From NCBI GenBank assembly GCA_013298185.1, contig JAAFJQ010000003.1, positions 694-64,693 on the forward strand: a stretch of 64,000 nt of DNA, read 5' to 3'. How positions within the stretch are numbered: the stretch's first letter is position 1; every line of letters starts with the position of its first letter. Source of the DNA: Deinococcales bacterium (GTDB taxonomy: Bacteria; Deinococcota; Deinococci; Deinococcales; JAAFIG01). Of this stretch, positions 3,882-59,862 are shown piece by piece. The notes under the pieces were generated by a model that saw only the letters and a program-made list of their open reading frames with translations, was not told where the DNA came from and ran no database searches. The translations under genes and the position numbers were made by a program.

Positions 3882-3903
3882 CATAGCTCAAAGCTCATAG
3901 CCC
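3882..3903. repeat. heptanucleotide array (AGCTCAT/AGCTCAA type) directly after the kinase stop codon
   Basis: The gene strand reads TAA-A-GGGCTATGAGCTTTGAGCTATGC. Confidence 0.8.
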
Positions 3904-15294: not shown

Positions 15295-15333
15295 TCATAG
15301 CTCATAGCTCGTAGCTCGCAGCTCATAAGCCCA
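15295..15333. repeat. heptanucleotide array (AGCTCAT, AGCTCGT and AGCTCGC units)
   Basis: TCATAGCTCATAGCTCGTAGCTCGCAGCTCATAAGCCC. Confidence 0.8.
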
Positions 15334-18870: not shown

Positions 18871-19720
18871 GATGCAAAAACTTACCCTTGGCAATGCCTT
18901 GATTTACGGTCTGATTTTATTTGGTGGTCTGCTGATGGCATTCCCCTTGTACTTTATGCTGGTTTTTGCCACGCAAAGCCGCGAAACGATTTTTTCCTTT
19001 CCACCACCACTTGTACCGGGTAGCATTGACCAGATTGTCAGCAACTACAACGCCTTGATGAAAATGACCGACAACACCTTCTGGCGCGTCTTTTACAATA
19101 GTTTTTACCTCGCCAGCATGGCAACCATCACCACCTTATTTTTCTGCTCACTGGCAGGATTTGGTTTTGCGATGTACGACTTCAAAGGCAAGAATGCACT
19201 CTTTGCTGTGGTCGTTGCCACCCAAGCCATTCCTGCGGCGCTGAATTTGATTCCGTTTTACCTCGTCATGAACTTAATCGGCTGGATCAACCAACCTCGA
19301 GCCTTATGGTTTCCGGGCATGGCAAGTGCCTTTGGCATCTTTTTAACCCGACAATACATTCAAAGCGCGATTCCTCGAGAACTGATGGACGCAGCTCGAG
19401 TAGACGGCAGCACCGAATTTGGCATGTTTTGGCGAATTATTTTACCGCTGATTCGTCCTGCACTTGGCACATTGGGCTTAATTACTTTTATTGGCGTTTG
19501 GAACGAATTTGTACTGCAAAGCCTGATTTTTAGAAGCCCCGAAACCCGCACCCTGCAAACCCTGATTCGCGCTATTTCAGGCGGAACAACTGCCACCAAT
19601 GTTGACTACGGCGGATTGATGATGGGAACAGCGATTACGGTTTTACCACTCTTGATTATCTTTATTTTCACCTCGAGACAACTGATAACAGGTTTAACGG
19701 CTGGGTCGGTGAAGAACTAG
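18863..19720 (+). CDS. ABC sugar permease (MalG/UgpE type)
   Basis: 285 aa. EAA loop LMDAARVDGSTEFGMFWRIILPLIRP. Confidence 0.9.
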   Translation: MIKMQKLTLGNALIYGLILFGGLLMAFPLYFMLVFATQSRETIFSFPPPLVPGSIDQIVSNYNALMKMTDNTFWRVFYNSFYLASMATITTLFFCSLAGFGFAMYDFKGKNALFAVVVATQAIPAALNLIPFYLVMNLIGWINQPRALWFPGMASAFGIFLTRQYIQSAIPRELMDAARVDGSTEFGMFWRIILPLIRPALGTLGLITFIGVWNEFVLQSLIFRSPETRTLQTLIRAISGGTTATNVDYGGLMMGTAITVLPLLIIFIFTSRQLITGLTAGSVKN

Positions 19721-19736
19721 CTTTGAGCTTTGAGAC
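19721..19736. repeat. heptanucleotide units directly after the permease stop codon
   Basis: TAG-CTTTGAG-CTTTGAG-AC. Confidence 0.7.
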
Positions 19737-30815: not shown

Positions 30816-30855
30816 AGCGTCAAGGCTTTGACCTTTAACCTTTTCTCTTTGACTT

Positions 30856-36605: not shown

Positions 36606-36628
36606 TCATAGCTCATAGCTCATAGCCC
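36606..36628. repeat. heptanucleotide array 5 nt after the stop of the MerR-like gene
   Basis: The gene strand reads GGGCTATGAGCTATGAGCTATGA. Confidence 0.8.
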
Positions 36629-36633
36629 AACAC

Positions 36634-37374
36634 CTAACTCTTCAAAATCGTTTCTATTGCCCCTAATAACCGTTGCCGCTCGAGTTCCGTGCGGGGTTTT
36701 TGGGCATCTTGGCGCAGCCAGAGTTCAATGCCAGTCTCGAGTTGGTATTGTTGCCAGTGTTGGCTGGGCTGTGGGGCTTGGATTTCTCGTCTGCGCGGCG
36801 CGGATAAGCTGGATAAGTAATCGAGGGCTTCGCGTTGGGCTGGGTTGGGCGTGGCTTCTTCTCGAGCTAAATCTTGGGTTTGGCTGGGTGCAGCGGCGAC
36901 TCGAGACAGTTGTGGGGCTGGGCTGGCGGATAAGAGACTCGAGGCAACTCTGTTTTGGCTTTGATAGGCTTCAACACTGCGGTTTTGGCTGATGCGCTCG
37001 GGTTTTTCTAAGCTGGGTAAGTCGCCGTTGAGTAAGCGCTCGAGGTGATTGGTGTCTTGTTGCAAGATGCTGTACATCAATTTGTTGGTGTAGCCTTCAG
37101 CACTGGCTCGGCGGATCAGCAGGACTTGAATCAGGTGGCGGTAGCTGTACCGAGCTTCTTTGCCAGCTTTGAGTGGCTCGTCAAGTAGGTTTTCCGAGGC
37201 GTAATGGCGGATGTTGCGGCTGCTGATTGGTTCTTTGGCTCGAGTGCCTTGGTAGTTTTCGGGCAGGTAGTCTCGTAACCAGCGGTTGCAGATCACCACA
37301 AATTCCTCGAGGTTGAAAATGTGGTCTTGTAGCATCTCCAAGGTTGGTTGTGCGGCTAATCTTCGGAGTGCCAT
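36634..37374 (-). CDS. MerR-like HTH protein with a low-complexity Q/S/P-rich linker
   Basis: NIRHYASENLLDEP...ARYSYRHLIQVLLI resembles the MerR recognition helix and wing. The assignment is weak. Confidence 0.45.
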   Translation of the reverse strand: MALRRLAAQPTLEMLQDHIFNLEEFVVICNRWLRDYLPENYQGTRAKEPISSRNIRHYASENLLDEPLKAGKEARYSYRHLIQVLLIRRASAEGYTNKLMYSILQQDTNHLERLLNGDLPSLEKPERISQNRSVEAYQSQNRVASSLLSASPAPQLSRVAAAPSQTQDLAREEATPNPAQREALDYLSSLSAPRRREIQAPQPSQHWQQYQLETGIELWLRQDAQKPRTELERQRLLGAIETILKS

Positions 37375-43769: not shown

Positions 43770-43779
43770 AAAGGTCAAA

Positions 43780-43819
43780 GGTAAAAGAGGAAAGCAGCTC
43801 AATGCTTTCCTCTTTTACC
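43780..43819. terminator. 16-bp hairpin built from purine/pyrimidine heptamer arrays between the convergent fabF and terC genes
   Basis: GGTAAAAGAGGAAAGC, loop AGCTCAAT, then GCTTTCCTCTTTTACC, followed by a T-rich tract. Confidence 0.6.
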
Positions 43820-43840
43820 TTTCTTCTTTCCTCTAATCTC

Positions 43841-44848
43841 TCAATCGCCTGCGTGTGGTTTTTTCTCGAGACTCGAGTCACCAGGGCGCTTGGCGGTCTT
43901 AATCAAGCTGGCAATCACACTGATGGCAAGGATGCTGACAATCACACCAAGCGAAACGGCGGTGGGGATTTTGATGCTTTCACCAAGAATCCATTTGGAG
44001 ACATCGGGCATCAAGAGCTTGACACCAACAAAGCTAAGAATCACAGCCAAACCAGTTTTCAGGTAAACAAAGCGATCCACAATGTCGGCTAATAAGAAGT
44101 ACAAGCTGCGTAAACCAAGAATTGCCATGACATTTGATGTAAAGACAATAAACGGGTCTTGGGTGATCGCAAAGATGGCAGGAATGCTATCCACCGCAAA
44201 AATCAAATCGGTGAACTCAATGAACACCAGCACCAAGAACAGTGGAGTTGCCATACGAACGCCATTTTCGACGGTAAAGAACTTTTGACCATCGTAGTTA
44301 TCAGAAACCTTGAAAAAGCGCTTGGCGAGCTTAATGGCTGGGTTTTTGTCCATATCCACATGGGCTTCGGATTCTTTTTGGGTCAGCATCTTGATGCCCG
44401 TGTACAGCAAAAACACACCGAAGACAATCAAGATCCAGTGGAATTCTTTAATCAGCGCCGAACCCAAGCCAATCATCGCACCACGCATGACGAGCGCACC
44501 CAAAATGCCCCAGAACAAAACACGGTGGCGGTATTGCGGTGGCACTTTGAAATAACCAAAGACCAGCACAAAGACAAAGATGTTATCCACCGCCAAGCTA
44601 TACTCGACCACATAGCCAGTCAGCCATTCAAAGCCTTTTTGTTGCCCCTGCCAAAGAAAAATAACTGCCGCAAAAGCCAAACCAAGCGTCACCCAGACGG
44701 TTGTCCAAATGGCAGCTTCTTTGACACTGACGACATGGGCTTTTTTATTAAAAACCCCTAAATCAAGTGCCAGCACACCCAGCACACCCGCTAAAAAAGC
44801 CACCCAAACCCAGAGTGGCACGACGATATTGGCAACAGCGTTTTCCAT
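43841..44848 (-). CDS. TerC-family integral membrane protein
   Basis: The ATG at 44848 follows an AAGGGG RBS. The protein has multiple TM segments, with DNIFVF and AVDSIPA TerC motifs. Confidence 0.85.
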   Translation of the reverse strand: MENAVANIVVPLWVWVAFLAGVLGVLALDLGVFNKKAHVVSVKEAAIWTTVWVTLGLAFAAVIFLWQGQQKGFEWLTGYVVEYSLAVDNIFVFVLVFGYFKVPPQYRHRVLFWGILGALVMRGAMIGLGSALIKEFHWILIVFGVFLLYTGIKMLTQKESEAHVDMDKNPAIKLAKRFFKVSDNYDGQKFFTVENGVRMATPLFLVLVFIEFTDLIFAVDSIPAIFAITQDPFIVFTSNVMAILGLRSLYFLLADIVDRFVYLKTGLAVILSFVGVKLLMPDVSKWILGESIKIPTAVSLGVIVSILAISVIASLIKTAKRPGDSSLEKKPHAGD

Positions 44849-44864
44849 CAAAGACCCCTTTTCT

Positions 44865-44970
44865 TTGATGAGTCTCGCCCTTTTCTTGCGCGCCGGAATT
44901 CTGACCCCATAGAAAGAATTCGTACTGACGACCACGCAAACCCCGTTTGGGGTGGCTACTCCCTCAACAA
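44865..44970 (-). promoter_or_regulatory. candidate yybP-ykoY (Mn2+) riboswitch in the terC leader
   Basis: The gene strand reads UUGAGGGAGUAGCC...GGGCGAGACUCAUCAA. The GGAGUAG and GAGAC conserved cores are flanked by pairing UGAG/CUCA, with two internal hairpins. TerC genes are classic targets of this riboswitch. Confidence 0.55.
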
Positions 44971-45210
44971 CTTATGTATTGTGACTTATTGGCTATACTT
45001 TGCAGTTGATAAACAGACATTTTTGTTCAGAGCCTGACTTTATACTGTGACAGACGAATTGAATCAATATCCAAAAAAAGTACAGCATATCCTCGAGACA
45101 AGCTATTTCTCTCGAGCCTAACAAATCAAATTCAATTTTTTCAACCTCGAGTTTTGGTCTGTCACTGGCTGCGTACACCCTTCTCGAGAACACCGTCTGC
45201 AATTGCTTTT

Positions 45211-45262
45211 CTCAAAGCTCAAAGCTCAAAGCCCATAGCTCATAGCTCATAGCTCATAGCCC
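45211..45262. repeat. longest heptanucleotide array (7 units); it supplies the last two codons and the stop of the GH1 gene
   Basis: The gene strand reads GGG-CTA-TGA-GCTATGAGCTATGAGCTATGGGCTTTGAGCTTTGAGCTTTGAG. Confidence 0.9.
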
Positions 45263-46666
45263 AACAATAAAATCCCGATACCACGCCCCACTGCTTTTCA
45301 ACGTTCGCTGCTGCGTGGCAAAATCCACATGGTACAAACCAAAGCGCTGGCTATAGCCTTCTGCCCATTCAAAATTATCGAGCAATGACCAGCAAAAATA
45401 TCCCTCGAGTGGAATACCTTGTTCAATCAGCAAAGCACACTGCTCGAGGTGAAGTTCTAGGTAACGCCTGCGTTCAGGGTCGTGAACAGCCCCATCGCGC
45501 ATTTCGTCTGGATACGCCGCGCCGTTCTCGGTAATGAAGATGTGTTTTGGCGCATAATCCAAATGCACTTTCTCGAGTTGCTGGTATAAACCTTTTGGGT
45601 AGACCTCCCAACCAAACCCTGTGGTTGGGTTTCCTCGAGCGGCTTCGGGAATAATTTCTACGGGCATTCCTGCAAATTGCAACAAAGCCGCCACGCCTTC
45701 TGCGGTCGAATTGGCTTTTGGGGTTTGTACCAAGTAGCGAAAATAATAGTTGACGCCCAGAAAATCCAGTGGCTGAGCAATAGTTGGTAGGTCATCAGTG
45801 AAGTTTTCTGGCAAAGCTGGCAAAAAAGCCTCGAGTTCAGGTGGGTAATGTCCTTTGTAAATCGGGTCGGCAAACAGTCGGTTCATCAGCGCATCAAGGG
45901 CATTAGCTGCAAAAACATCTTCACTCGAGTCGGTGACAGGTTCAACGTAACTCATGGACAAGGCAATGCCCACGGGGGTCTTACAAGCCTCACGGATACC
46001 CTGCACTGCCAAGCCATGCGCCAGAAGTGCATGGTGCGCCACCCGAAACGCCAGACTTAAATCCGTATGTCCGGGTGCGTGCTGCCCAGTCACATGCCCA
46101 AGCATGGTAAACACCAAAGGCTCGTTAAGGGTAATGATTCCTTCGACTCGAGAACCAAAGTGCTGTGCCATCAGATGCGCGTACTCAGCAAAACGCAACG
46201 CCGTATCCCGATTTGCCCAGCCGCCGCGTGATTCCGAATCTCGAGTCTCCTCGAGGGCTTGAGGTAAATCCCAATGGTACAAAGTCATGAACGGCGCTAT
46301 TCCCGCCTCGAGCAGCGCATCGAGCAGTTGGTCATAAAAAGCAATGCCTTTCGGGTTAGGCTTACCCTTGCCGTTTGGTTGGATTCTCGACCACGCCGCG
46401 CTAAAACGATACGCATTGGTGTTCAGGGCTTGCATCAGGCGGACATCATCTTTGAAGCGGTGGTAATGGTCGCAGGCAAAGTCGCCCGTATCGGCATTGT
46501 GGATTTTGTTTTTGGTGTGGGCAAAGGTATCCCAAATCGAAGTGCCTTTGCCATCCTCGAGAACCGCACCTTCGATTTGATAAGCAGCTGTGGCAGTTCC
46601 CCAGAAGAAGTTTTTCGGAAATTTTTCTCGCATGGTTTTATTGTACTCGAGTGGCGTGGTTTTCAT
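45254..46666 (-). CDS. GH1 beta-glucosidase (second copy)
   Basis: The ATG at 46666 lies just after the slpA terminator. FFWGTATAAYQIEGA, TLNEPL and ITENGA. Confidence 0.9.
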   Translation of the reverse strand: MKTTPLEYNKTMREKFPKNFFWGTATAAYQIEGAVLEDGKGTSIWDTFAHTKNKIHNADTGDFACDHYHRFKDDVRLMQALNTNAYRFSAAWSRIQPNGKGKPNPKGIAFYDQLLDALLEAGIAPFMTLYHWDLPQALEETRDSESRGGWANRDTALRFAEYAHLMAQHFGSRVEGIITLNEPLVFTMLGHVTGQHAPGHTDLSLAFRVAHHALLAHGLAVQGIREACKTPVGIALSMSYVEPVTDSSEDVFAANALDALMNRLFADPIYKGHYPPELEAFLPALPENFTDDLPTIAQPLDFLGVNYYFRYLVQTPKANSTAEGVAALLQFAGMPVEIIPEAARGNPTTGFGWEVYPKGLYQQLEKVHLDYAPKHIFITENGAAYPDEMRDGAVHDPERRRYLELHLEQCALLIEQGIPLEGYFCWSLLDNFEWAEGYSQRFGLYHVDFATQQRTLKSSGAWYRDFIVGL

Positions 46667-46680
46667 GTACTCGAGAATTG

Positions 46681-46704
46681 AAAAACCCCCGCTTTTGGCG
46701 GGGG
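46681..46704 (-). terminator. intrinsic terminator of slpA
   Basis: The gene strand reads CCCCCGC-CAAAA-GCGGGGG-TTTTT, 20 nt after the TAA stop. Confidence 0.8.
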
Positions 46705-46724
46705 TCTTGAACTCGAGTTCTGGT

Positions 46725-49700
46725 TTAGAACTTGAGGGCGTAGGTGATACGGAAGCGTTGACCGAAGATTGGTTGTGCCAAGCTGAAGTCACTGAACGCA
46801 AAGATACCGTATTCAAAGTTCAAACCATAGTAGCCAAAGTTAGCGTAGATACCGCTGACGTTTGCGCCAGCAGCGGTGCTATCGCTACCCCATGAGCCAA
46901 CACCGACTGGTGCGGCGAAGCTAGGTCCAAAGCCTGAACCGTTACGGTTTGTATCGGTACGTGAAGCAAATTGGATACCAAAGGTGCTTGGAGCGCCAAA
47001 TGGTCCAACTGCCCAGTTCAAGCCAAGCAAGAACCAACCAGTGCTTGCAGTGAAGTTGGTGGCTGCGGTGTGGCTGGTGGTGTCATATGCCAAACCGAGG
47101 GTGATTGCCGAACCGAACAAGAAGTTACCGCTGGCTGTGACCGCACCACCGAAGTTGGTTGGGTCGTCAGCGCCGAATGCAGCACCGTTGCTTGGTGTGG
47201 AAATGGTGCTGAAGTAGGCTTTTGGTGCAATGTCGAAGCCAGCCAAGTTGAACTTGGTGTCAACATACGCATAGAAGCGGGTATCAGTTTCAACGCTAAA
47301 GCTGTCACGGACACGCACACCCAAGGCGATATTCACGCCACCGATAAGCGCTCCAGCTTTTGTGCCATCGTGAGCAGCGGTGAATTCGAGTGTGCCACGG
47401 CTACGGACAGCTGTTGCGCCAGCGATTTCGTTCTCAAAGTCGTACTTCAGACCAAAGTCAAAGCCGAGCAGTCTAAAGCCAGTCAATGAGAAGCCGTAGT
47501 CGGTTTCAGCAGTGGCTGAAGCAACATTGGTGTCTGATTTTGGACCGTTGCCCAAAGCAACGCCTGGGTCGAGGCGACCACGGGCATCGTAGTACAAGGC
47601 AAAGCTGAACAAGCCAAAGATGTTCTTGATACCCAAGTCAACACCAAAGCCAGTTTGGTTCTTGGCGTACTTGCCATCTGAACCAAGTCCGTTGAAGTGA
47701 CCGTCAACAAAGCGGTAGTTAATACCGACGGTGAATGGATCGAGGTTAGCACCAACTTCAACAAAGGCAGCTGCGCTGCTTGCAATGGTTGGGGTGTCGC
47801 TCTTGTTCAATTCGCCCTTGAGATCCAAGAAGCCGAACAATTTACCGCCGAAATCCAAACCGTAAATGGTTGTGGTGTTGTTTGGCGAACCGAGGACATC
47901 TTGACCTTCGTAGCCGTAGTAAACGCCGCCACGGAAGCCTGGGATCAAGCTGGCAGTACCACGCACACCGGCGAAGTAACGGAAGTCACCGTTGTTGGAA
48001 GTACCAGCACTTGCCCCATTTGCCTGTGCAGCGGCAGTGATAGCGGTAACCGTACCGACGCTGGTTGGCAAGCTCAGATTTGTGCTTGTATCTGTGCCAA
48101 AGTCAACCGTATAGTTTGTACCATTGACGTTAATACGGAAGATTGTTGCAGTCGCATTACCAGTTACAGTACGCAAGTTAGCCAAGCTCAAGCTGACACG
48201 ACTGCTACCGTCTGAGCCAGTAATCAACTGGGTAACGGCAGCACCTGGGTTGTTGCCCGGGGTGTAAATTGAAACAGCAGCTCCGAAAGTCTGACCAATT
48301 GCACCATTCCTCGAGCCGTAAACAAAGGTCAAAGCCATATCGAGTGGCAACAAGCCTGCGCCGCTGAGTTGGGCAACAAAGCCTGCACCGCGTCCGCTGG
48401 TGTTCTTGAAGCCGTAGTCGGTAAAGCTGAAACCTGGTGTGTAACCAAAGTTAATCAGCAATGGTGCGCTACCAACATTGAACAAGGTTTGGAAAGCGGA
48501 AATACGGATGACTGGGTTAAAGCCAAAGGCATTGCTTGGATCGGTGAAGTTGCGGGTGCCACCATCGGTGAACGACAACACAAGGTTGAAGTTCGGGTAG
48601 GTGTTCCAGCTGTTGCTGCTCTCGATCAAGTTGCGTGGACGGAAAGTAAACGCCAAGTTCAGACCGTAGGTAACAACGCCTTCGGTACGGACGCCTGCTG
48701 CGGTGCTTAGAGTTCCACCTGCTAATGGACGTACCAATCCGTTCGTAACAGCCAAGCTGTTTCCGAAGTCGGAAACCGCAGTACCACCTGAAGCATAGCC
48801 AACTCGAGCCAAACCAAGGCGGTCAATATCGAAGTCGTTAGCGCCAACGTTTGCGCCACCAGCGGTGGTCCAAACTCGAGCTGTGTTGTAGGTCAAGCTG
48901 ATTGTTCCACCAATGGTGAAAGCACTTGCCTCGAGGGTAGCAACGCGACCTTCGACAGCTGTAACACGTCCTGCGACTCGAGCCAAGTCTGCTTCAACAG
49001 AGCCAACGCGGTCAGCAAGGGCGGTTTGGTCGCGGCGGAGGAGCGTGGTGAATTCGCGCAAGGATTCCAAGTCGTCTTGGCTTGCAGCGCTGTCAGCCAA
49101 GTCAGCCAAACCAGCATTGGTCACGGACAAGCCGCGCTCGAGTTGGGTTGTGCGGTCTTGGAGGCTCAGCACGTCTTGGTTCAAAAGAACAACAAGGTCG
49201 TTTAGAGCAGCAATGCTGTCGGCTTGACCTTCGACGGTTGCGCCGAGTTCGCCGAGTTGGCTCTCGAGGTCGTCAATGCGACCATTGAGTTCGTCGTAAC
49301 GGTCTTGGAGTTCACGAGCTTGAGCAAGTGCGGTGTCAGCAGCGATGCTGGTTGCTTCGACTTGATCGGTCAAGTCGGCAAATGCGGCTGGGTCAACACC
49401 GGCTGGCAAGTTCTCGAGGGCAGAAGCGACTGCTTCGGCAAGGTCACGGGCTTGGTTGGCGGTTTCTGCAACAGCAGCCAAGTCGTCGTTGGTGGCGTAA
49501 TCGCCAGCTGGTTGGGCTTCTTGGGCAAGTGCCAAGGCATCATCAGCAGTTTGTTGTGCAACTTCGGCAGCAGCCAAAGCAGCAGCAGCAGCGTCGGCGG
49601 CGTCCATGGCAGCTGCCATAGCGTCGTCGGCGGTTTCCTGTGCATTTGCAGCAGCGCCTAATGCGTCATCGGCGCTTTGTTGTGCAACTTCAACACCAGC

Positions 49701-51122
49701 AGCAGCATCGTCGGCGGTTTGTTGCGCGGCGGCAGCAGCAGCCAGTGCATCGTCGGCGGTTTGTTGCGCGGTAGCAGCAGCAGCAGCGGCAGCGTCGGCA
49801 GAATCTTGAGCAGCCATTGCCATTTGTGCAGCATCAGCAGCAGCTGCCATAGCGTCATCGGCGGTTTGTTGTGCGTTTGCAGCAGCGCCTAATGCGTCGT
49901 CGGCGCTTTGTTGTGCAACTTCAACACCAGCAGCAGCGTCGTCGGCGGTTTGTTGCGCGGCGGCAGCAGCAGCCAGTGCATCGTCGGCGGTTTGTTGGGC
50001 AGCCATGGCAGCAGCCATTGCATCATCAGCGCTTTGTTGGGCGTTGGCAGCGGCGTTGATTGCATCGTCGGCGGTTTGTTGGGCAGCACTTGCACCAGCA
50101 GCAGCGTCATCGGCAGCTTGTTGGGCAGCAGCAGCAGCAGCCAAGGCGTCGTCGCCTGTTTGTTGGGCAGCAGCAGCAGCAGCAGCGGCAGCGTCGGCGC
50201 TTTCTTGAGCGGCGGCAGCGGCAGCCATGGCGTCATCGCCTGTTTGTTGGGCAGCAGCAGCAGCACCTAATGCGTCGTCGGCGGTCTGTTGAGCAGCAGC
50301 AGCGGCAGCAGCAGCGTCATCGGCTGCTTGTTGTGCAGCAGCAGCAGCAGCCAGTCCGTCGTCGCCTGTTTGTTGGGCAGCGGCGGCAGCAGCGTTGGCA
50401 GCGTCGGCAGCAGCACCAGCAGCATCAGCGGTTTGTTGAGCGCCAGCAGCGGCAGCACCGGCTGCATCAGCTGCTTGTTGTGCAGCAGCAGCGCTGTCGC
50501 TTGCAGCTTGGGCAGCGCCAGCAGCAGCTTCGGCGAGGTCGCGGGCTTGGGTGGCAATTTCTTCAACGCGAGCCAAGTCGTCGGCAGTGACTGCGTTGTC
50601 CTCGAGTTCGGCAACGCGAACACCGAGTTGGGCAAGGTCAGCAGCCAATTCTTGGATGGCGTTTTGCAAAACAACCAAGTCAGCGGCGGTCAAGAAATTC
50701 TTAAGGTCGTCTTTGGTCGCGACATTGGTTGGCAATGGAGCAGTTCCGCCAGTTTGTGCAGCTTTGATAGCAGCATCCAAGTCAGCTTTGGTAGCGTAAC
50801 GTGGAATGCCACATTCGCCGTTGCGGACAGCGTCGAGCAAACGAGCAACAATAGCGGCGGCTTGGTAACGGCTCACTGGTTCGTTACCACGGAAAGTGCC
50901 ATCTGGGAAACCACGAACGATACCGCAGTTCGCAGCGACTTGGATGGCGGCGGATGCCCAGTGACCGGCTGGAATGTCTTTCAATTCAGCTGGTTTCTGG
51001 TTTTGAGTCTGGGCGGTTGCTGGATCTACTTGCCCAGTTGGGTTGGTGCCTGTTTGCGCGAACGCGGTAGCTCCCGCACTGAGCGCAGCAGTCAACAACA
51101 TTGCAGCCGTGATTTTCTTCAT
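46725..51122 (-). CDS. slpA: giant SlpA-type envelope protein: SLH domain, Ala-rich coiled coil and C-terminal beta-barrel
   Basis: 1465 aa. Signal peptide MKKITAAMLLTAALSAGATAFAQ. SLH motif DIPAGHWASAAIQVAANCGIVRGFPDGTFRGNEPVSRYQAA. The C-terminal part is rich in alternating G/S/T/aromatic beta-strand patterns and ends YALKF. Confidence 0.85.
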   Translation of the reverse strand: MKKITAAMLLTAALSAGATAFAQTGTNPTGQVDPATAQTQNQKPAELKDIPAGHWASAAIQVAANCGIVRGFPDGTFRGNEPVSRYQAAAIVARLLDAVRNGECGIPRYATKADLDAAIKAAQTGGTAPLPTNVATKDDLKNFLTAADLVVLQNAIQELAADLAQLGVRVAELEDNAVTADDLARVEEIATQARDLAEAAAGAAQAASDSAAAAQQAADAAGAAAAGAQQTADAAGAAADAANAAAAAAQQTGDDGLAAAAAAQQAADDAAAAAAAAQQTADDALGAAAAAQQTGDDAMAAAAAAQESADAAAAAAAAAQQTGDDALAAAAAAQQAADDAAAGASAAQQTADDAINAAANAQQSADDAMAAAMAAQQTADDALAAAAAAQQTADDAAAGVEVAQQSADDALGAAANAQQTADDAMAAAADAAQMAMAAQDSADAAAAAAATAQQTADDALAAAAAAQQTADDAAAGVEVAQQSADDALGAAANAQETADDAMAAAMDAADAAAAALAAAEVAQQTADDALALAQEAQPAGDYATNDDLAAVAETANQARDLAEAVASALENLPAGVDPAAFADLTDQVEATSIAADTALAQARELQDRYDELNGRIDDLESQLGELGATVEGQADSIAALNDLVVLLNQDVLSLQDRTTQLERGLSVTNAGLADLADSAASQDDLESLREFTTLLRRDQTALADRVGSVEADLARVAGRVTAVEGRVATLEASAFTIGGTISLTYNTARVWTTAGGANVGANDFDIDRLGLARVGYASGGTAVSDFGNSLAVTNGLVRPLAGGTLSTAAGVRTEGVVTYGLNLAFTFRPRNLIESSNSWNTYPNFNLVLSFTDGGTRNFTDPSNAFGFNPVIRISAFQTLFNVGSAPLLINFGYTPGFSFTDYGFKNTSGRGAGFVAQLSGAGLLPLDMALTFVYGSRNGAIGQTFGAAVSIYTPGNNPGAAVTQLITGSDGSSRVSLSLANLRTVTGNATATIFRINVNGTNYTVDFGTDTSTNLSLPTSVGTVTAITAAAQANGASAGTSNNGDFRYFAGVRGTASLIPGFRGGVYYGYEGQDVLGSPNNTTTIYGLDFGGKLFGFLDLKGELNKSDTPTIASSAAAFVEVGANLDPFTVGINYRFVDGHFNGLGSDGKYAKNQTGFGVDLGIKNIFGLFSFALYYDARGRLDPGVALGNGPKSDTNVASATAETDYGFSLTGFRLLGFDFGLKYDFENEIAGATAVRSRGTLEFTAAHDGTKAGALIGGVNIALGVRVRDSFSVETDTRFYAYVDTKFNLAGFDIAPKAYFSTISTPSNGAAFGADDPTNFGGAVTASGNFLFGSAITLGLAYDTTSHTAATNFTASTGWFLLGLNWAVGPFGAPSTFGIQFASRTDTNRNGSGFGPSFAAPVGVGSWGSDSTAAGANVSGIYANFGYYGLNFEYGIFAFSDFSLAQPIFGQRFRITYALKF
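49490..50530 (-). repeat. tandem 42-nt (14-codon) repeats inside slpA, with a 231-bp higher-order duplication
   Basis: At least 18 units of the type QQTADDAxAAAAAA. 49646-49766 is near-identical to 49877-49997 (2 mismatches seen). Confidence 0.85.
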
Positions 51123-51324
51123 TACTACCCCCTAAAGGTATGCGCGGCTTTGTGGCTTTGGTGGTTCTTGGGGGGACTCGAGGCGAGTTACCGTGTTTCC
51201 TCTCTCGGGTTTGACCTTAAAAAACCATGTCCAGCGTAGGCGTTGCACGTTGCAGGCACTCGAGAACCGTTTGGGGTTTTCGCTATCGCGAAGAGGTTCT
51301 GTTGTGACGCTGCTCCAGTTCTAG

Positions 51325-51355
51325 ATTTTAACACAATGAGAGCAGGTAAAGTCAA
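51325..51355 (-). promoter_or_regulatory. candidate slpA promoter
   Basis: The gene strand reads TTGACT, about 18-19 nt, then TTAAAAT, roughly 200 nt upstream of the ATG. The spacing is longer than ideal. Confidence 0.3.
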
Positions 51356-51566
51356 ATCTAAGAATTGATGCGGCTCATGAGACACCAAAAGCGGCTTTGC
51401 TGTTGTGTGAGAGCAATTGTAAGCCTATCGAGCATGTATCGCGTTTGTTCTCATGAAGCTACCATAGTAACAAGATGAGCATAAAAAATCAGAATCTCGA
51501 GTCATCTGTGCTAAAAGCATCAATGAAGTCAAAAAAGACCGATTGTATTTTTTTATTCTCATGAAA

Positions 51567-53000
51567 CTATTGGAGTAAACTACCTCGAGCTTGCATCGGT
51601 TGAGAAAAAATTAAAATCGTCAGGATGTTCAGTAACAACAACAACAGCACTTGAGGCAGCATCCTCAGAACCACACCTCGAGTATCCTTGGCTTGGCTCG
51701 AGGCTTTTTGGTACGTGATGTACAAACCAGCAAAAAAGGCGAGGTATGTCACCACCACCTGAAAAGGAAAAATCGCATCCAAACGCGGCGTGACCGCCAA
51801 AGGCGCTGGCTCGAGCGGCAACCCTAGGCGCATGAAAGCGGTGATGATGTTGGGGTACAAGGTGTTTGCCCCAGTCACAAAATGAAATAGGTAATGCCCG
51901 CCCCAAATCGAGAGTAGAATCGGATACAAAACCCCGACCCAATCGCGCAGATGACCCGAGGCTCGAGCCGCCAAGACCGTCAGACCAACTCCTAAACCCA
52001 GTGCAACCACAAAAATCAAAGCCAACAGCAGCGCTTCATCTCGAGTACCGAGCAGACCAGATAGCCAATTTGCCAAGTTATAATACGGCGGAATCATCGC
52101 AAAGGCATTCAGCAGCCCCGCCCAAGTCAGCAGCAGCACAAACCAAGTCCAATCGGTTTTGGGTTTGCTATGCAATGCTTCACGCAACGGATTTCTGACC
52201 TCGAGCGCGACATTGTCATACGGGCAGGCCCGAACGCAGTTCAGGCAGAGCGTGCAATCTTCGTTGCTGCTGATACTCGGCACAAACAAATTGGTTTCGC
52301 AGCCCGAGAACGCCCCAAGTGGTTTGGCGTTCATTGGCTCGAGTTGCAACAGCACATGCTCGGCGCGGTTGCCAAGCATCGGCGCTCGAGTGCTGGCAGT
52401 CTCGAGCCGACCATTGAGACAGTACTTGCCTTCGCAACTCGAGCAGACGTTATGGTCTTTGGCAGTAATTTGGGTTGGGCTAACCGTCGAGAGCGCAAAG
52501 TTGAAGTTACCCAGTGGGCAAACATATTTGCAAAATGTTCCCACCGGAAAAAGTGCATCCACAAAAAACGCTGCCACAAAATACCCAACAATCAGCCAAG
52601 CCGTCAGCCAAGGACTTGCCCAGAGGTCAAAGTGTTCATAAGAAAATAGGAATACAAGTGTGGCAGCCAGCACCAAGTACTTGTTTTTTAGCGCTCGAGG
52701 GAAAGAAAATTCGGGCAGGAAACGCTTCGCCAGTTTGGTCGCACCTCGAGTCAGCATCAAAGGGCAAGCGGCGCAAAATAAATTACCAAACACAGCAATT
52801 GCCAAAGCCACCAGCCCACGATAATGCACCCAAACCGCCACGGTTGCGGTGTTGGTTGGCGCGAGTTGTCGCCCAGAAAAACCATCGTAAATTGCAAGAA
52901 GTGCGATTGCCAGCAGCGGCACTTGCAGCACAAACCTCGAGTAACGCCAGCGCAGAAAACCACCCAGAAGTGGAACACGCAAAACGTCTAAACGGGTCAT
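51567..53000 (-). CDS. integral-membrane polyferredoxin (CcoG/FixG/NapH-like 4Fe-4S protein)
   Basis: 477 aa with multiple TM helices. Cys clusters CAACP, CKYVCP, CSSCEGKYC and CTLCLNCVRACP. Confidence 0.8.
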   Translation of the reverse strand: MTRLDVLRVPLLGGFLRWRYSRFVLQVPLLAIALLAIYDGFSGRQLAPTNTATVAVWVHYRGLVALAIAVFGNLFCAACPLMLTRGATKLAKRFLPEFSFPRALKNKYLVLAATLVFLFSYEHFDLWASPWLTAWLIVGYFVAAFFVDALFPVGTFCKYVCPLGNFNFALSTVSPTQITAKDHNVCSSCEGKYCLNGRLETASTRAPMLGNRAEHVLLQLEPMNAKPLGAFSGCETNLFVPSISSNEDCTLCLNCVRACPYDNVALEVRNPLREALHSKPKTDWTWFVLLLTWAGLLNAFAMIPPYYNLANWLSGLLGTRDEALLLALIFVVALGLGVGLTVLAARASGHLRDWVGVLYPILLSIWGGHYLFHFVTGANTLYPNIITAFMRLGLPLEPAPLAVTPRLDAIFPFQVVVTYLAFFAGLYITYQKASSQAKDTRGVVLRMLPQVLLLLLLNILTILIFSQPMQARGSLLQ

Positions 53001-53007
53001 GGATGAT

Positions 53008-53403
53008 TCATGGGTTCACCCCAAGCCTCGTTTCGCCAAGCAGGGTTTTGGAATTGGTCTTGGCGGTGATGCTCAGCACCCAATCACCCGACATGGTGAA
53101 ATGAAACGCCTCGAGCCGATAACGCCCATTGCCGATTGCCTTAGCGGTTTGTTGGACAGGTGCCATACCCGCATGGGTCATATCACCACGCACAATCACT
53201 TCGGCATTCTCGAGGGGCTTATTTTGATAGAGCAAGGTCAGGGTGATTGGGGCAAAACCAACTTTGGGATTCGTGACCTCGAGTTTGACGGTCAGGTCGT
53301 TTTGTTGGGGTGGGGCGCAAGCGATCAGGAAAACAAACAGGCTTTGAGCTATGAGCTTTGAGCCATGAGGGGGAACTCGAGAAGGGTAGCCCGAGAGCTT
53401 CAT
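53008..53403 (-). CDS. YtkA/FixH-like lipoprotein
   Basis: Lipobox LFVFLIAC. DMTHAGM and FTMSGDW are typical of the YtkA-like domain. Confidence 0.65.
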   Translation of the reverse strand: MKLSGYPSRVPPHGSKLIAQSLFVFLIACAPPQQNDLTVKLEVTNPKVGFAPITLTLLYQNKPLENAEVIVRGDMTHAGMAPVQQTAKAIGNGRYRLEAFHFTMSGDWVLSITAKTNSKTLLGETRLGVNP

Positions 53404-53906
53404 GGCTGGACTTCCTTATTCTTGGGGCGGGTGAATAAGACCAATGCCAAGGCAATCAAGGCAATCACCACGGGCAATGCAGCCAAAATGATTAAGAGGG
53501 TGATGTCGGGTTGACCAACTTTTGAAGGCGGTAAAACCAAACGCACTGGTTCTTTCAGTGGAAACTGCACAGTGGCAGCCACCTCGAGGGCTTCTTGTGG
53601 GAAGGTGGTATCGCGGAATTTCAGGGTGTACGTACCACTTGGGATTTGCACTGGAACTCGGTACTCACCGTCGGCAATGGGTTTGACTGTGCCACTCGAG
53701 ATTTCGCCAGCATCGGATAAAAAACTGTAGGCAAGGGTCGCACCGTTGATGGGTTCGCCTTGGACACCGTTCATCAGGACGACAAGGTCTTTGCCTTCGG
53801 TGAAGGTATCTAAATTCACAGCAACAGCATGGGCAAGGGCAGAGGAAAGGGGAAAGAGGAAAGAGGAAAGAAAAAGCAGTAAGTAGAGGAAACGCATCGA
53901 GCGCAT
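53400..53906 (-). CDS. secreted Ig-like protein with a predicted N-terminal His and a C-terminal TM anchor
   Basis: The ATG at 53906 starts signal peptide MRSMRFLYLLLFLSSFLFPLSSALA, followed by HAVAV. C-terminal anchor ITLLIILAALPVVIALIALALVLF. ATGA-type overlap with the next gene. Confidence 0.6.
   Translation of the reverse strand: MRSMRFLYLLLFLSSFLFPLSSALAHAVAVNLDTFTEGKDLVVLMNGVQGEPINGATLAYSFLSDAGEISSGTVKPIADGEYRVPVQIPSGTYTLKFRDTTFPQEALEVAATVQFPLKEPVRLVLPPSKVGQPDITLLIILAALPVVIALIALALVLFTRPKNKEVQP
53838..53892. repeat. purine-only heptamer array lying inside coding sequence (it encodes the signal peptide on the other strand)
   Basis: GCAGAGGAAAGGGGAAAGAGGAAAGAGGAAAGAAAAAGC. The reverse strand encodes FLYLLLFLSSFLFPLSSA. 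Confidence 0.8.
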
Positions 53907-54072
53907 GGCAAAATTGTAGCGCAGATTCTTATAGACGTTTGCCTGTCTCAAGTTGTACGGCACAAGTACGCCAAATAGCCCAAGGCAAAAAAAACGATTC
54001 TCGAGTAGGCTAATAAGAGAACTCGAGGAAGGAGGAAAGAGGAACGAAAAATTCAAAACCGTTTCGTTTTAT

Positions 54073-54894
54073 ATGTTTACTTTCCTTGATTTCCTCGATA
54101 TTGCGCTGGTCACGGTACTGCTCTACCAAGCCTACCGTCTGATGGCGGATTCACGCACACTGAACTTGGTGCGCGGTTTGGTGGTTTTTGGCTTGACTTT
54201 GTACGCGGCTCGGTGGTTGGGTTTGACCACGCTGTACGCGATTCTCGAGCGGATCGCAGCGATTGGTGTGTTTGCTTTGATTGTGATTTTTCAACCTGAA
54301 CTCCGCGCTGTTCTCGAGCGGGTTGGCAGACCACGACAAACCGAGGATACCCCGCAGTTCTTGGCGCTGAACGAAATCACTCGAGCTGTGGAATGGTTGG
54401 CAGAACGTAAAATTGGGGCGCTGATTGCCTTGGAACGCCAAACGCCGCTGGGCGATTACGCTGGCAGTGGGATTAAACTCGATGCTGAAGTTTCAAGTGG
54501 TTTACTCGAGACCATTTTTGCTCGGAACACACCGCTACACGATGGCGGGGTGATTGTGCAGCACGGACGGATTCGGGCAGCGGGTTGCTTATTTCCACTG
54601 CAAAGCGATTCAAGCGGGGTGCAGCGTTTTCTTGGCACGCGCCACCGTGCAGCGTTGGGTTTATCTGACCAGACCGATGCTTTAATTGTTGTGGTTTCCG
54701 AGGAACGCGGTTCGGTTCGCTTAGCCGAAAGCGGGGTTCTTAGCCCAGATTTAACCGTCCTCGAGTTGCGCGAACGGCTTCGCACATCCACCGTGCAGAA
54801 AACCGCACCCAGCAAAATTCGGCGTTTTGGTTTAACCAGACAAAAACTCCAAGAAAGTCGTCAAAATCCTTCTGAGGTTGGCAATGCAAGCTAG
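54073..54894 (+). CDS. cdaA: diadenylate cyclase CdaA (DisA_N domain)
   Basis: Three N-terminal TM helices, then TPLHDGGVIV and GTRHRAALGLSDQTDALIVVVSEERG. Confidence 0.9.
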   Translation: MFTFLDFLDIALVTVLLYQAYRLMADSRTLNLVRGLVVFGLTLYAARWLGLTTLYAILERIAAIGVFALIVIFQPELRAVLERVGRPRQTEDTPQFLALNEITRAVEWLAERKIGALIALERQTPLGDYAGSGIKLDAEVSSGLLETIFARNTPLHDGGVIVQHGRIRAAGCLFPLQSDSSGVQRFLGTRHRAALGLSDQTDALIVVVSEERGSVRLAESGVLSPDLTVLELRERLRTSTVQKTAPSKIRRFGLTRQKLQESRQNPSEVGNAS

Positions 54895-54902
54895 TTCTGA
54901 GG

Positions 54903-55523
54903 TTGGCAATGCAGGTTAAACTGCTCGAGCAGTTACGGCGTTATGGTTGGTTTGAAAATTGGTTGGCTAAACTTGGGGCGTTACTGATTGCGATTGTCTT
55001 GTGGTTTGCTGCCACCACCGAGCGCCGCACCACAGCAACCCGAAGCATCGAAGTGCCACTCGAGGTGCGAGGCTTAAGCGAAAACCGCGTGATCCAAGAC
55101 TTACCCAAAACCGTGCGCTTACAAATCCAAGGCGCTCGCAGTGAACTCGAGCAAATCCAAAGCAGCAACCTTGAAGCCAGCATCAACATCTCGAGTCGCC
55201 CCGATGGTTTTTTCTCGAGCGATGTTCGGGTTGACGCCCCAACCAACGTCAGCGTGATTTCTTATGAACCACGCCGCATTTCCGCCACCCTAAAAAGCGT
55301 GGTGCAAGAAAGTGTGCTGGTCAGAATTGCTTCGGATAACCCAGCTCAGACCTTCCCCTCGAGTTTCACAGTCCTAGCCATTGGTACAAGCGAACAAGTC
55401 AGCCAAGTTGCTTTTGCAGTTGGTATTGCAGGCAGCGCCCAAACCACCCTGACCCCAGTGGACAAGGACGGAAAATTTGTCGAAGGCGTGCGCCTCGAGC
55501 CAAGCAGTGTACAAATTAGGTAA
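54903..55523 (+). CDS. cdaR: YbbR-domain protein (CdaR-like regulator of CdaA)
   Basis: Has an N-terminal TM anchor followed by repeated YbbR-like beta modules (IEVPLEVRGL, VRLQIQG). Sits directly after cdaA. Confidence 0.7.
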   Translation: MAMQVKLLEQLRRYGWFENWLAKLGALLIAIVLWFAATTERRTTATRSIEVPLEVRGLSENRVIQDLPKTVRLQIQGARSELEQIQSSNLEASINISSRPDGFFSSDVRVDAPTNVSVISYEPRRISATLKSVVQESVLVRIASDNPAQTFPSSFTVLAIGTSEQVSQVAFAVGIAGSAQTTLTPVDKDGKFVEGVRLEPSSVQIR

Positions 55524-55596
55524 AAGAGAAAAGAGAAAAGAGGAAGGGTGCGTAAAGATTTTTACTTTTCTCTTTAACCTTTCCTCTTTCCTCCTC
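55519..55596. repeat. purine/pyrimidine heptamer inverted arrays between the convergent cdaR and lipA genes
   Basis: GGTAAAAGAGAAAAGAGAAAAGAGGAAGG...TTTTACTTTTCTCTTTAACCTTTCCTCTTTCCTCC. Confidence 0.7.
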
Positions 55597-56533
55597 AGCC
55601 CTTCAACACCTGTTCTGCCTTGTAACTCGAGCGCACCAACGGACCCGCCACAACCTCGAGGAAACCATACTCGAGGGCTTCAATGCGAATTTCATCAAAT
55701 TCGGCAGGTGGAATATAACGCTCCACAGGCAAGTGGTTACGGGTGGGGCGCAGGTACTGCCCAAAGGTGACAATATCCACGTTAGCAGCTCGAATATCAC
55801 GCAATGCCTCGCGGATTTCTTCTCGGGTTTCGCCAAGTCCGAGCATCAGGCTGGTTTTGGTATACACACTGGGCTTATAGGCTTTTGCGCCTTGAAGCAC
55901 ATGCAGGGTTTGCTCGTAACTTGCCCTCGAGTCTCGGACTGGATGGGTTAAGCGCCGTACCGTCTCGAGGTTCTGGGCATAGACTTCGACACCGCTATCA
56001 ATCACGGTGTAAACACCCTCGAGATTGCCTTGAAAATCTGGGGTCAGGGCTTCGACTTTGGCAGTTGGCACTCGGGTTTTAATAGCCTCTACAGTTCGGG
56101 CAAAATGAGCTGCGCCGCCATCGGGCAGGTCATCGCGGTCTACGCTGGTCAGAACAACGTACTTTAAGCCCATCAGTTCAACCGATTCGGCAATATGATC
56201 TGGTTCGGATTCGTCTATTCGCCCTTGAGGGTTGCCTGTGTTGACCGCACAGAACTTACAGGCTCTGGTACAAACACTTCCCAACAACATAAACGTAGCT
56301 GTACCTGCGCTCCAGCACTCCGCGATATTTGGACACATCGCTTCTTGGCAAACCGTGGCTAAACCATGTCGCCCAACAATATCCTTGATGCTCGAGTAAC
56401 CAATCCCGCTCGGCAAGGAAACTTTTAACCAATCGGGTTTACGTTCACGCACAGGTAGCGGTGCATCTTTAAGACGCACTCCATCTTTCACCACTGGAAA
56501 ATCGTATTCACGGGCAGGTTTAATCACCATCAA
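55595..56533 (-). CDS. lipA: lipoyl synthase
   Basis: 312 aa. Radical-SAM CTRACKFC plus the auxiliary cluster [12 protein letters not shown]. Confidence 0.95.
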
Positions 56534-56700
56534 ATCTTAAAGCATTTTGGCTTCGATGATTGTGTGCTTAGAGACGCGGTACTCTCACCCCGTGCTACGC
56601 ACGACCCTCTCTCGCAAATTGCGAGAGAGGGTGACTTTTGCGAGAGCATTTTGCGACAGCAAAATGCGGGTGAGATTACCACCCGCTTAAACAACACATA

Positions 56701-56875: not shown

Positions 56876-56903
56876 TAAACAACACATACAAGTCAAGCAA
56901 AGC

Positions 56904-57575
56904 TCATAGCTCGTAGCTCACCGCTCGCTCCTCGAGCCATTTGTACTCAGCAAACTCGAGCCGAAAAGCCCGCTCGAGATGGGCTTTGGCTTCAGGCATT
57001 GGTATGGAGTGTCCAAGGATTTTTTCTAAACTGGTCATTCGGGTGTCGGTTAAACCACATGGGATGATCAAATCAAAGTCCGCAAGATTGGTGTTGATGT
57101 TCAATGCCAAACCATGCAGGGCAACATTTTGGCGAATCGCAACGCCAATGCTACCGATTTTATCGCTTTCCACGTACACGCCAGCGTACCCCGGGTTGCC
57201 TTGGGCGAGAACACCATACTGCTCGAGCAGCCGAATTTGCACTTGCTCGAGACGACGCAGGAAATCACGCACTTTGCGTCCAACAGGAAAAATCGGATAC
57301 GCCACCAACTGCCCAAGCCCGTGATACGTGGCAGTGCCGCCGCGTTCGGTGCTGATCACATCTATGCCGAGCTTGGCAAGTACCTCGAGCGGGGTGACAA
57401 GGTTGGTGGTTTCAGTGTCTTTGCGCCCGTGGGTGATCACCCTAGGATGCTCGAGCAGCAATAAGGCTGGGGTTGCACCAGCCACCACCCGAGCATGTGT
57501 CTCGAGTTGCAAAGCATAGGCTTGTTGGTAGGGCATGACCCCGAGGTCTTTGGTGATGAACATCTCAAGCTCCAA
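56904..57575 (-). CDS. lipB: octanoyltransferase LipB
   Basis: LLLLEHPRVITHGRK and GGTATYHGLGQLVAYPI. The C-terminal VSYEL and the stop are encoded by a heptamer array. Confidence 0.92.
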   Translation of the reverse strand: MELEMFITKDLGVMPYQQAYALQLETHARVVAGATPALLLLEHPRVITHGRKDTETTNLVTPLEVLAKLGIDVISTERGGTATYHGLGQLVAYPIFPVGRKVRDFLRRLEQVQIRLLEQYGVLAQGNPGYAGVYVESDKIGSIGVAIRQNVALHGLALNINTNLADFDLIIPCGLTDTRMTSLEKILGHSIPMPEAKAHLERAFRLEFAEYKWLEERAVSYEL

Positions 57576-57578
57576 TCA

Positions 57579-58142: not shown

Positions 58143-58162
58143 ACTTAAGTCAGTCTAGCATT

Positions 58163-58645: not shown

Positions 58646-58658
58646 GGGGTAGTTTAAG

Positions 58659-58770
58659 GGGCTGTGAGCTGTGAGCTATGAGCTTTGAAGGTTAAAGGTC
58701 AAAGAGGAAAGAGGAAAGGTTAAAGATGATTGGTTTACTTTCCTCTTTAACCTTTCCTCTTTTCTCTAAT
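58659..58770. repeat. heptamer array (GCTGTGA type) followed by a 16-bp purine/pyrimidine hairpin
   Basis: GGGGCTGTGAGCTGTGAGCTATGAGCTTTGAAGG, then AGAGGAAAGGTTAAAG...CTTTAACCTTTCCTCT. Confidence 0.8.
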
Positions 58771-59840: not shown

Positions 59841-59862
59841 TTTTTTGAAGTATCAATGCGTT

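Follow-up and report, generated by a model that had tools for sequence, protein, structure and literature searches.

Young heptanucleotide repeat arrays at the stop codons of a Deinococcota-related bacterium

Why should short tandem repeats that carry a stop codon in every unit sit on, or directly behind, the stop codons of bacterial genes? This question is raised by a 64-kb stretch of DNA from a Deinococcales bacterium (contig JAAFJQ010000003.1; the whole stretch is referred to here as the window), in which a sequence-only reading had picked out eight arrays of 7-nt units and suggested that they act as all-frame translational stops or 3′-end elements, or mark preferred insertion sites at gene ends. 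We find that the arrays look like one dispersed family of heptanucleotide simple-sequence repeats (GCTNTGA, hereafter family A), young and species-specific. We consider it probable that they are selfish or neutral microsatellites that selection has filtered to gene ends. On this reading they are not a dedicated termination device, and the stops that they supply are a by-product.

The arrays themselves are well supported. Tandem Repeats Finder and direct reading confirmed period-7 arrays at all eight places named in the sequence-only reading, with the unit types it gave and 2.3-7.7 copies each. The units read TCATAGC, TCAAAGC, TCGTAGC, TCGCAGC or TCACAGC on one strand and GCTNTGA on the opposite strand. 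With up to two mismatches, the 20-nt, three-unit pattern GCTNTGAGCTNTGAGCTNTG matches the window 15 times, against 0.01 matches expected from shuffled sequences; a two-unit pattern with up to one mismatch matches 21 times, against 0.36 expected. Because all 21 of these two-unit matches fall within the known arrays, the catalogue is complete, and the window holds exactly 8 (strand and head refer to the GCTNTGA reading):

Array 1: 3882..3903, minus strand, reads GGGCTATGAGCTTTGAGCTATG; its head lies 1 nt past the TAA of a Ser/Thr kinase gene.
Array 2: 15295..15333, minus strand, reads TGGGCTTATGAGCTGCGAGCTACGAGCTATGAGCTATGA; antisense to both flanking plus-strand genes.
Array 3: 19720..19736, plus strand, reads GCTTTGAGCTTTGAGAC; the shortest, with 2.3 units.
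Array 4: 36606..36628, minus strand, reads GGGCTATGAGCTATGAGCTATGA; 5 nt past the TAG of a MerR-like gene.
Array 5: 45211..45262, minus strand, 7.4 units; gives a GH1 beta-glucosidase gene its last two codons and its TGA.
Array 6: 53341..53369, plus strand, reads GCTTTGAGCTATGAGCTTTGAGCCATGAG; antisense within the YtkA-like lipoprotein gene 53008-53403 (minus strand).
Array 7: 56897..56920, minus strand, reads TGAGCTACGAGCTATGAGCTTTGC; encodes VSYEL, the last five residues of LipB, and its TGA.
Array 8: 58659..58690, plus strand, reads GGGCTGTGAGCTGTGAGCTATGAGCTTTGAAG; antisense to both flanking minus-strand genes.

Seven of the eight arrays are intergenic or at the last codons of a gene, and one lies in a signal peptide. 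Five are in sense orientation and either begin 0-5 nt past a stop codon or themselves provide it; arrays 2, 6 and 8 are antisense to neighbouring genes. To gauge chance, we redistributed the eight arrays over the intergenic DNA, extended by 21 nt into each gene end, with positions and orientations drawn at random; 2 of 20,000 trials put at least five of them in sense at a stop codon (P ~1e-4). Open reading frame (ORF) lists and Pfam searches bore out the gene contexts that had been proposed for the five sense arrays:

Ser/Thr kinase gene: 3905-6001, minus strand, ends TAA-A-GGGCTATGAG.
ABC permease gene: 18863-19720, plus strand, ends in a TAG whose G is the first base of array 3.
MerR-like gene: 36634-37374, minus strand, ends in a TAG 5 nt ahead of array 4.
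GH1 gene: 45254-46633, minus strand, ends GGG CTA TGA, within array 5.
LipB gene: 56904-57575, minus strand, ends GTG AGC TAC GAG CTA TGA (VSYEL and stop), within array 7; the called protein has 219 amino acids.

Two of the antisense arrays precede a gene: the head of array 2 is 101 nt ahead of the start of a LacI-type gene (15435), and that of array 8 is 13 nt ahead of the ATG of gene 58163-58645 (minus strand). No credible small ORF ends at either head. Array 8 continues directly into the hairpin of an array of a second heptamer family (family B, described below). Array 6 is read through, in antisense, as part of the signal peptide. The arrays also have a polar anatomy. GGGCT forms the head of five of them, and array 5 consists of two abutting sub-arrays arranged head-to-tail, (GGGCTATGA GCTATGA GCTATGA GCTATG) and (GGGCTTTGA GCTTTGA GCTTTGAG), with a GGGCT head on each.

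How old are these arrays? The host is uncultured, and the similarity of its proteins places it closest to Deinococcota, not to cyanobacteria: the nearest named relatives of its LipB and GH1 proteins are Deinococcus, Meiothermus and Marinithermus (~52-56% identity), with other relatives at 76-82%. We compared the window with four loci from three related species (L119, L121, L123 and L285; 83 kb in total), of which L119 and L121 are syntenic with it and all four share an excess of the word CTCGAG. Nowhere in these 83 kb is there a family-A array, not even at the sites that correspond to those in LipB, GH1 and YtkA. The LipB orthologues end in RGLEL, RGLES or RGLEVAY with ordinary stops and without an array, and the host protein ends in the array-derived AVSYEL. 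GH1 orthologues have short, variable tails of 3-12 residues past WYRDFI, such as AGHILS or AGQ; the host tail is VGL, its GL and stop being array-derived. The GH1 orthologue locus (21 kb) holds no period-7 array of at least 19 nt. A leftover of the original C-terminus downstream of array 5 is not expected, as the host GH1 is not truncated relative to its orthologues. At YtkA, the signal peptide reads MKRLWLCLALVAC in L121 and MKLSGYPSRVPPHGSKLIAQSLFVFLIAC in the host, where array 6 is part of a ~48-nt in-frame segment that is absent from the L121 orthologue. This segment holds array 6 in antisense together with a CTCGAG, and adds ~16 residues to the signal peptide. A permease in L119 was rejected as a comparison for array 3, the gene not being orthologous.

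Array 7, by contrast with its absence from three orthologous loci, is unchanged, down to the number of units, in two further samples (L117 and L118) whose sequence is 95-98% identical to that of the window. The lack of arrays at orthologous sites and the sameness of array 7 in such close samples bracket their age: on these alignments, they arose after the lineage parted from its 80%-identity relatives but before the strains diverged. By the same comparison, the arrays are recent in the lineage and not conserved parts of their genes. They show how repeats can remodel genes, by replacing C-terminal residues and donating stops (LipB, GH1) and by lengthening signal peptides (YtkA and its neighbour, discussed below). 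This is relevant to annotation, as the stops and last codons of several genes are repeat-derived.

Contigs from two of the samples show further features around the arrays. In L117 (SRR9948926; 964-993 against window 56872-56700), ~170 nt downstream of array 7 are missing that are present in the window and in L118. L284, a short-read contig from SRR9948930 and the sole contig covering array 5, ends within that array (window 45235). The arrays appear to break short-read assemblies.

We then asked what class of repeat family A belongs to. Its arrays have the properties of long simple-sequence repeats (LSSRs): head-to-tail 7-nt units extend further than chance, and one unit recurs at eight dispersed loci in 64 kb. 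The LSSRs of Mrazek, Guo and Shah (2007), as reviewed in two later papers (PMC4679880, PMC4692102), agree with the arrays in their head-to-tail runs of 2-8 units, their mostly intergenic and dispersed distribution, their confinement to lineages and the use of one unit per family; the GCTNTGA unit and the host lineage are new. According to that work, cited in the same two papers, heptamers are the most over-represented LSSR class in bacteria, which is ascribed to replication slippage. Our own counts agree with this over-representation: in 0.94 Mb, made up of pattern-fetched loci, the window and a few related loci, we find 263 period-7 arrays and at most 29 for each other period from 5 to 11. 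The arrays thus amount to one further heptamer microsatellite family, whose value is mainly descriptive, together with what the cross-genome counts below say about a positional rule.

(GCTNTGA)n arrays occur in many phyla, among the matches listed. We rejected the possibility of a pan-bacterial conserved motif. Viral contigs yielded 49 loci for the GCTNTGA motif and 29 and 82 for two arbitrary control heptamers; with the controls about as common, the motif is not special. Loci with the motif also carry many unrelated heptamer arrays. Within foreign (GCTNTGA)n arrays from bacterial loci (L001-L116, L124-L172), the variable base is G in 254 units, A in 113, T in 115 and C in 14, so that unit position 4 mostly completes GTG, ATG or TTG, followed by A. 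Control motifs are skewed too, and this base skew may be without significance.

Several better-known repeat classes can be set aside. All-against-all comparison of 200-nt flanks gave matches of 10-13 nt only, with no target-site duplications, terminal repeats or common flanks. A larger mobile element around the arrays was rejected on this lack of common flanking sequence, as was membership of the repetitive extragenic palindromic (REP) sequences, bacterial interspersed mosaic elements (BIME) or miniature inverted-repeat transposable elements (MITE), against which the fold z-scores of -1.8 to +1.1 also count. These scores come from folding the sense RNA, which revealed no significant structure in family-A arrays. 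Liang, Rudd and Deutscher are said to have found in 2015 that REP elements within ~15 nt of E. coli stops reduce the expression of the preceding gene because terminating ribosomes stall there. REP elements and the arrays are both extragenic repeats directly after stops, but REP acts through a stable hairpin, and family A has no such structure.

Neither do the arrays look like intrinsic terminators or a known RNA family. Rfam gave no match for them, and the window contains no tRNA genes. In a scan of 44000-60000, terminator-like sites were absent at arrays 5-8 (arrays 1-4 lie outside this interval) and no more frequent overall than in shuffled sequence. We therefore rejected an intrinsic (Rho-independent) terminator, as the five sense arrays have no significant hairpin and arrays 5-8 no terminator-like site. 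Many of the window's genes carry an ordinary hairpin terminator and no array.

The sequence-only reading had also likened the arrays to cyanobacterial short tandemly repeated repetitive (STRR) sequences. Heterocystous cyanobacteria carry STRR units of the CCCCAGT, TTGGTCA and ACTGTTG types. The likeness holds at the level of class, both being tandem heptamers dispersed in intergenic DNA and neither having a known function, as is reported of the STRR of Calothrix PCC 7601 (cited in PMC4692102). Membership was rejected: the units here are GCTATGA, GCTTTGA and GCTGTGA, and the host proteins are nearest Deinococcota. There is no evidence of common descent with STRR.

Two other published heptamers resemble family A in placement or in coding properties. 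The GGGAATC and GGGGA(C/T)T repeats (Rehm et al. 2015, PMC4692102) obey the same polarity rule as all eight of our arrays. In Xanthomonas and Nostoc, GGGAATC repeats stand near a stop on the coding strand or else shortly before a gene, on the non-coding strand; they are rare between divergent genes and differ in length and sequence among related species (PMC4692102). Here, likewise, five arrays are sense at stops and three are antisense with the head toward a gene start. GGGAATC repeats, however, are G-rich, form G-quadruplexes, are stop-free and often occur as inverted pairs (PMC4692102), whereas family A has no G-tracts in its unit, carries TGA in each unit and never forms inverted pairs; it is family B that pairs. 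Membership of the G-quadruplex repeats was rejected: in place of at least four G-tracts of at least three G, the arrays have GGG in the head alone.

The TAACTGA repeats of marine Beggiatoaceae, cyanobacteria and Bacteroidetes are also heptamers with stops in all three forward frames, overlap gene ends by up to 18 nt, and as insertions are tolerated solely at the start or end of a protein (MacGregor 2015, PMC4679880). In the best-studied genome they cover the ribosome-binding site immediately ahead of start codons, in forward orientation (PMC4679880), whereas forward arrays here come after stops. We rejected membership of the TAACTGA network, as the unit differs and five of the eight arrays follow stops in forward orientation. 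The all-frame-stop idea and the observation that heptamers crowd at stops thus both have published precedents, in TAACTGA (PMC4679880) and GGGAATC (PMC4692102), respectively.

We next considered whether the stop codons within the units account for where the arrays lie. Each sense unit contains TGA, and since seven is not divisible by 3, no reading frame stays open for more than three units of a sense array. To this extent the proposal of all-frame stops stands. Its counterpart, TAG in all frames of the other strand, holds for TCATAGC units but not for TCAAAGC and TCACAGC units, which have no stop there. With stops in all sense frames, sense arrays are not to be found deep within ORFs, and a larger sample agrees. 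We pooled 307 GCTNTGA arrays from unrelated genomes, among the matches listed, and called genes crudely as the longest non-overlapping ORFs of at least 100 amino acids. Within such ORFs lie 52 antisense arrays and 1 sense array (n=247). An array's own stop codon closes the upstream ORF in 35 of the 307, and the distances from a stop, measured to the head for sense arrays, are distributed as follows:

Sense arrays: 21 at 0-5 nt, 16 at 6-30 nt, 26 at 31-100 nt.
Antisense arrays: 6 at 0-5 nt, 20 at 6-30 nt, 44 at 31-100 nt.

For period-7 arrays of any kind, with crude ORF calls and orientation ignored, the excess at stops is weak (44 against 36.8 expected in bacterial sequences, 85 against 64.5 in viral ones); the signal is clear only when orientation is considered. 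The suggestion of a preferred site at gene ends is thus supported as a pattern, in the window as in the foreign arrays.

The same placement is found for heptamers that contain no stop. In viral contigs, arrays of a stop-free control, (GTCCAAR)n, start 0-5 nt past stops in ten cases, all in a single orientation. Over the viral loci L202-L281, arrays of this control, which had been picked arbitrarily, start 0-10 nt past the stops of many different genes, with constant orientation. The window itself holds family B, (AAAGRNN)n, which is purine-rich and stop-free and starts 0-11 nt past stops in sense orientation. Since family B, (GTCCAAR)n and GGGAATC all adjoin stops as family A does, stop codons are not the whole reason for the placement, and an all-frame stop function is unnecessary for explaining it. 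As a function, then, the all-frame stop is unsupported: stop-free heptamers are placed alike, three of the eight arrays lie behind no gene, and the orthologous gene ends are array-free. The counts from foreign genomes suggest that the crowding of heptamers at stops is general. Why heptamers of differing sequence crowd the first bases past stops with a fixed polarity is a wider question, noted in the literature and never explained.

On the microsatellite reading, some copying process would seed copies at new sites, where they would lengthen or shorten through slippage. A sense array would survive only at or just beyond a dispensable gene end, where it may donate the stop. Antisense copies without TAG could be read through, and could then survive ahead of genes or in coding parts that tolerate them, signal peptides for instance. 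The DNA just past a stop would hold no needed signal, the promoter and ribosome-binding site of the next gene being on the far side, and loss of the spacer between stop and array would press the array against the stop. What we observe fits the outline of this model: the arrays are real and recent, array sequence now stands in for the final codons of LipB and GH1 and makes one signal peptide longer, and sense copies are kept out of ORFs.

A number of observations weigh against this account, beginning with the small size of the host sample, which is the 64 kb of the window. One unit at eight sites is not possible by independent slippage, so that a dispersal step has to be assumed. All eight arrays face the nearer gene boundary with their head, the tail facing a spacer of 37-363 nt. 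Arrays 1 and 4 begin 1 and 5 nt past separate TAA and TAG stops despite 74 and 301 nt of available intergenic DNA. In foreign genomes, the density of sense arrays after a separate stop is ~3x as high over the first 6 nt as over the following 25 nt, and antisense arrays show no such peak; ~12 foreign sense arrays still lie within 5 nt of a separate stop once TGAs from partial units are removed. Finally, a CTCGAG 6-23 nt past the tail of six of the eight arrays is unaccounted for. Selection alone is not obviously a sufficient account of the tightness and polarity of the arrays, and their polarity is unexplained by this model.

An alternative is a polar process of active copy-and-paste that would start at GGGCT and extend tail-wards, through template switching, gene conversion or some enzyme, with a preference for gene boundaries or for the neighbourhood of the hyper-abundant CTCGAG. 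We regard such a process as rather unlikely, although it would accommodate the identical unit at eight sites, the GGGCT head on five of them, the two headed elements that make up array 5, and the heads that all point toward the nearer gene boundary. It would also fit the TGTTG that precedes the head of both arrays 4 and 5, the YtkA insertion with its array and CTCGAG, and the CTCGAG beyond six of the eight tails, which no general relation between CTCGAG and stops explains. At LipB, the host reads GGT-GAGCTACGAGCTATGAGCT-TTG where the L119 orthologue reads GGT-CTCGAG-TTG. Set against this, target-site duplications, terminal repeats and common flanks were not found around the arrays, and no candidate enzyme was identified. 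The CTCGAG association is post hoc, with eight cases behind it; many genomes that have no CTCGAG excess carry arrays of this motif too; and array 3 could be a simple duplication in situ.

Two of the features just named deserve description in their own right. Arrays 4 and 5 (36606-36633 and 45240-45267, minus strand) have five extra bases in common ahead of the head, TGTTG-GGGCTATGAGCTATGAGCTATGA, which may be a trace of site-to-site copying. CTCGAG lies 6-23 nt past the tails of arrays 1-6, in a background of 6.2 per kb (post hoc P ~1e-4), and the unit, written CT-NT-GAG or CT-NC-GAG, resembles CTCGAG plus one base. A general relation between CTCGAG and stops was rejected as the cause of this arrangement: the first CTCGAG beyond a stop lies a median of 77 nt away, and we find no such relation. 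The presence of CTCGAG at array tails may also be coincidence. A metagenome scan for arrays with a nearby CTCGAG returned at least 120 loci, none of them from the CTCGAG-rich clade among the matches listed.

The abundance of CTCGAG is itself unusual, and is probably more striking than the arrays. The word occurs 404 times in the 64-kb window, against ~16 expected and 41 for the runner-up among 6-bp palindromes. Its density is similar in coding (6.3 per kb) and intergenic (6.2 per kb) DNA and reaches 4-6.6 per kb in the relatives L119, L121, L123 and L285. We see no extended consensus around it; within genes the CTC-GAG frame is favoured (196 occurrences against 88 and 86). This excess resembles the cyanobacterial highly iterated palindrome HIP1, but the word is different and the host lies outside the cyanobacteria. 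No mention of it was found in the literature searched.

A function at the 3′ end of the mRNA, right after the stop codon, is unlikely in our judgement. Such an element might be a second stop that catches, in whichever of the three frames, ribosomes that have read through or shifted frame; it might offer overlapping start-stop mini-ORFs (ATG AGC TAT GAG CTA TGA) that handle terminating ribosomes; or it might be bound by an RNA-binding protein that determines the 3′ end or the stability of the mRNA. The sense placement of five of the eight arrays 0-5 nt from a stop (P ~1e-4) speaks for it, as does the peak across phyla (21 sense arrays at 0-5 nt and 16 in the next 25 nt, against 6 and 20 in antisense) and the extension of the rule to family B, (GTCCAAR)n and GGGAATC (PMC4692102). 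Most GGGAATC repeats in Xanthomonas are transcribed, and transcripts start or stop at those that form G-quadruplexes more often than at control repeats (PMC4692102), which favours a 3′-end role. The prevalence of A, T or G at unit position 4, giving ATG, TTG or GTG with C far rarer, would also speak for a function, but control motifs are skewed at their variable position as well. The arrays are moreover not conserved: the three relatives lack them in all 83 kb, the LipB, GH1 and YtkA orthologues included. Three of the eight are antisense to their neighbours, one of them within a coding region. Stop-free heptamers are placed alike, so that stop codons are not the reason; the arrays have no RNA structure and no Rfam family; and many genes of the window manage with ordinary hairpin terminators and no array.

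A broader version of these two ideas is that a general polar process places heptamer arrays at translation stops, or a 3′-end function keeps them there, in bacteria and phages and whatever the sequence. We think this quite unlikely. It would draw on the placement 0-5 nt past stops, in a single orientation, of family A in the host and in the 307 foreign arrays, of family B, of the (GTCCAAR)n control in viral contigs and of GGGAATC in Xanthomonas. If that placement is more than a residue of selection, the birth or retention of microsatellites would be linked to translation termination in a way not recognised so far, perhaps tied in this host to CTCGAG.

Family B, the second heptamer family in the window, differs from family A in often forming inverted pairs:

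Family-B sites: 43770-43834, 55518-55593 and 58685-58767.
Further family-B sites: 29901-30043, 20040-20068, 30826-30850 and 797-822.

The inverted pairs often fill the spacer between convergent genes, each arm starting 0-11 nt past the stop of its own gene. They fold strongly and have U-rich 3′ arms (z -7.8, -2.5 and -5.1). The pairs are thus likely to be bidirectional terminators. Purine-rich repeats also stand directly past the LipA stop in relatives (L121 12050-12118 and L119 12454-12491, corresponding to 55524-55594 in the window), made up of (AGGTCAAA)n with period 8 in L119 and of mixed 7-9 nt units in L121. Their presence in relatives makes family B older than family A, with a conserved position.

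Another family-B array, at 53841-53871, lies antisense in the signal peptide of the gene at ~53400-53906 (minus strand) and encodes FLSSFLFPLSS. This gene and the neighbouring YtkA-like gene at 53008-53403 (minus strand), which contains array 6, are adjacent and translationally coupled, encode exported proteins and each have a signal peptide longer than that of the L121 orthologue. In either gene, gaining or losing a single unit would put the reading frame out, which makes the two candidate phase-variable genes. That the arrays in general are contingency loci, in which gain or loss of one unit switches genes or alters products, is very unlikely and plausible only for this pair. Array 6, alone of family A, lies in the 5′ coding part of its gene, and the family-B array lies in the signal peptide of the gene just upstream; phase variation classically depends on short tandem repeats (PMC4679880). 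Against such a role, five of the eight arrays stand at 3′ ends, so that a one-unit change there alters a few terminal residues at most, the associated genes are of housekeeping types (LipB, GH1, kinase, permease), and the unit number of array 7 is equal in three samples that differ by 2-5% in their flanks.

One further repeat in the window is of a different kind. At 49567-50493, within a gene for a protein of 1465 amino acids (46725-51122, minus strand), lies a GCA/GCT-rich coding repeat with periods of 42, 126 and 168 nt. The L121 orthologue of this gene has SLH and SlpA_C domains, so the product is probably an S-layer protein.

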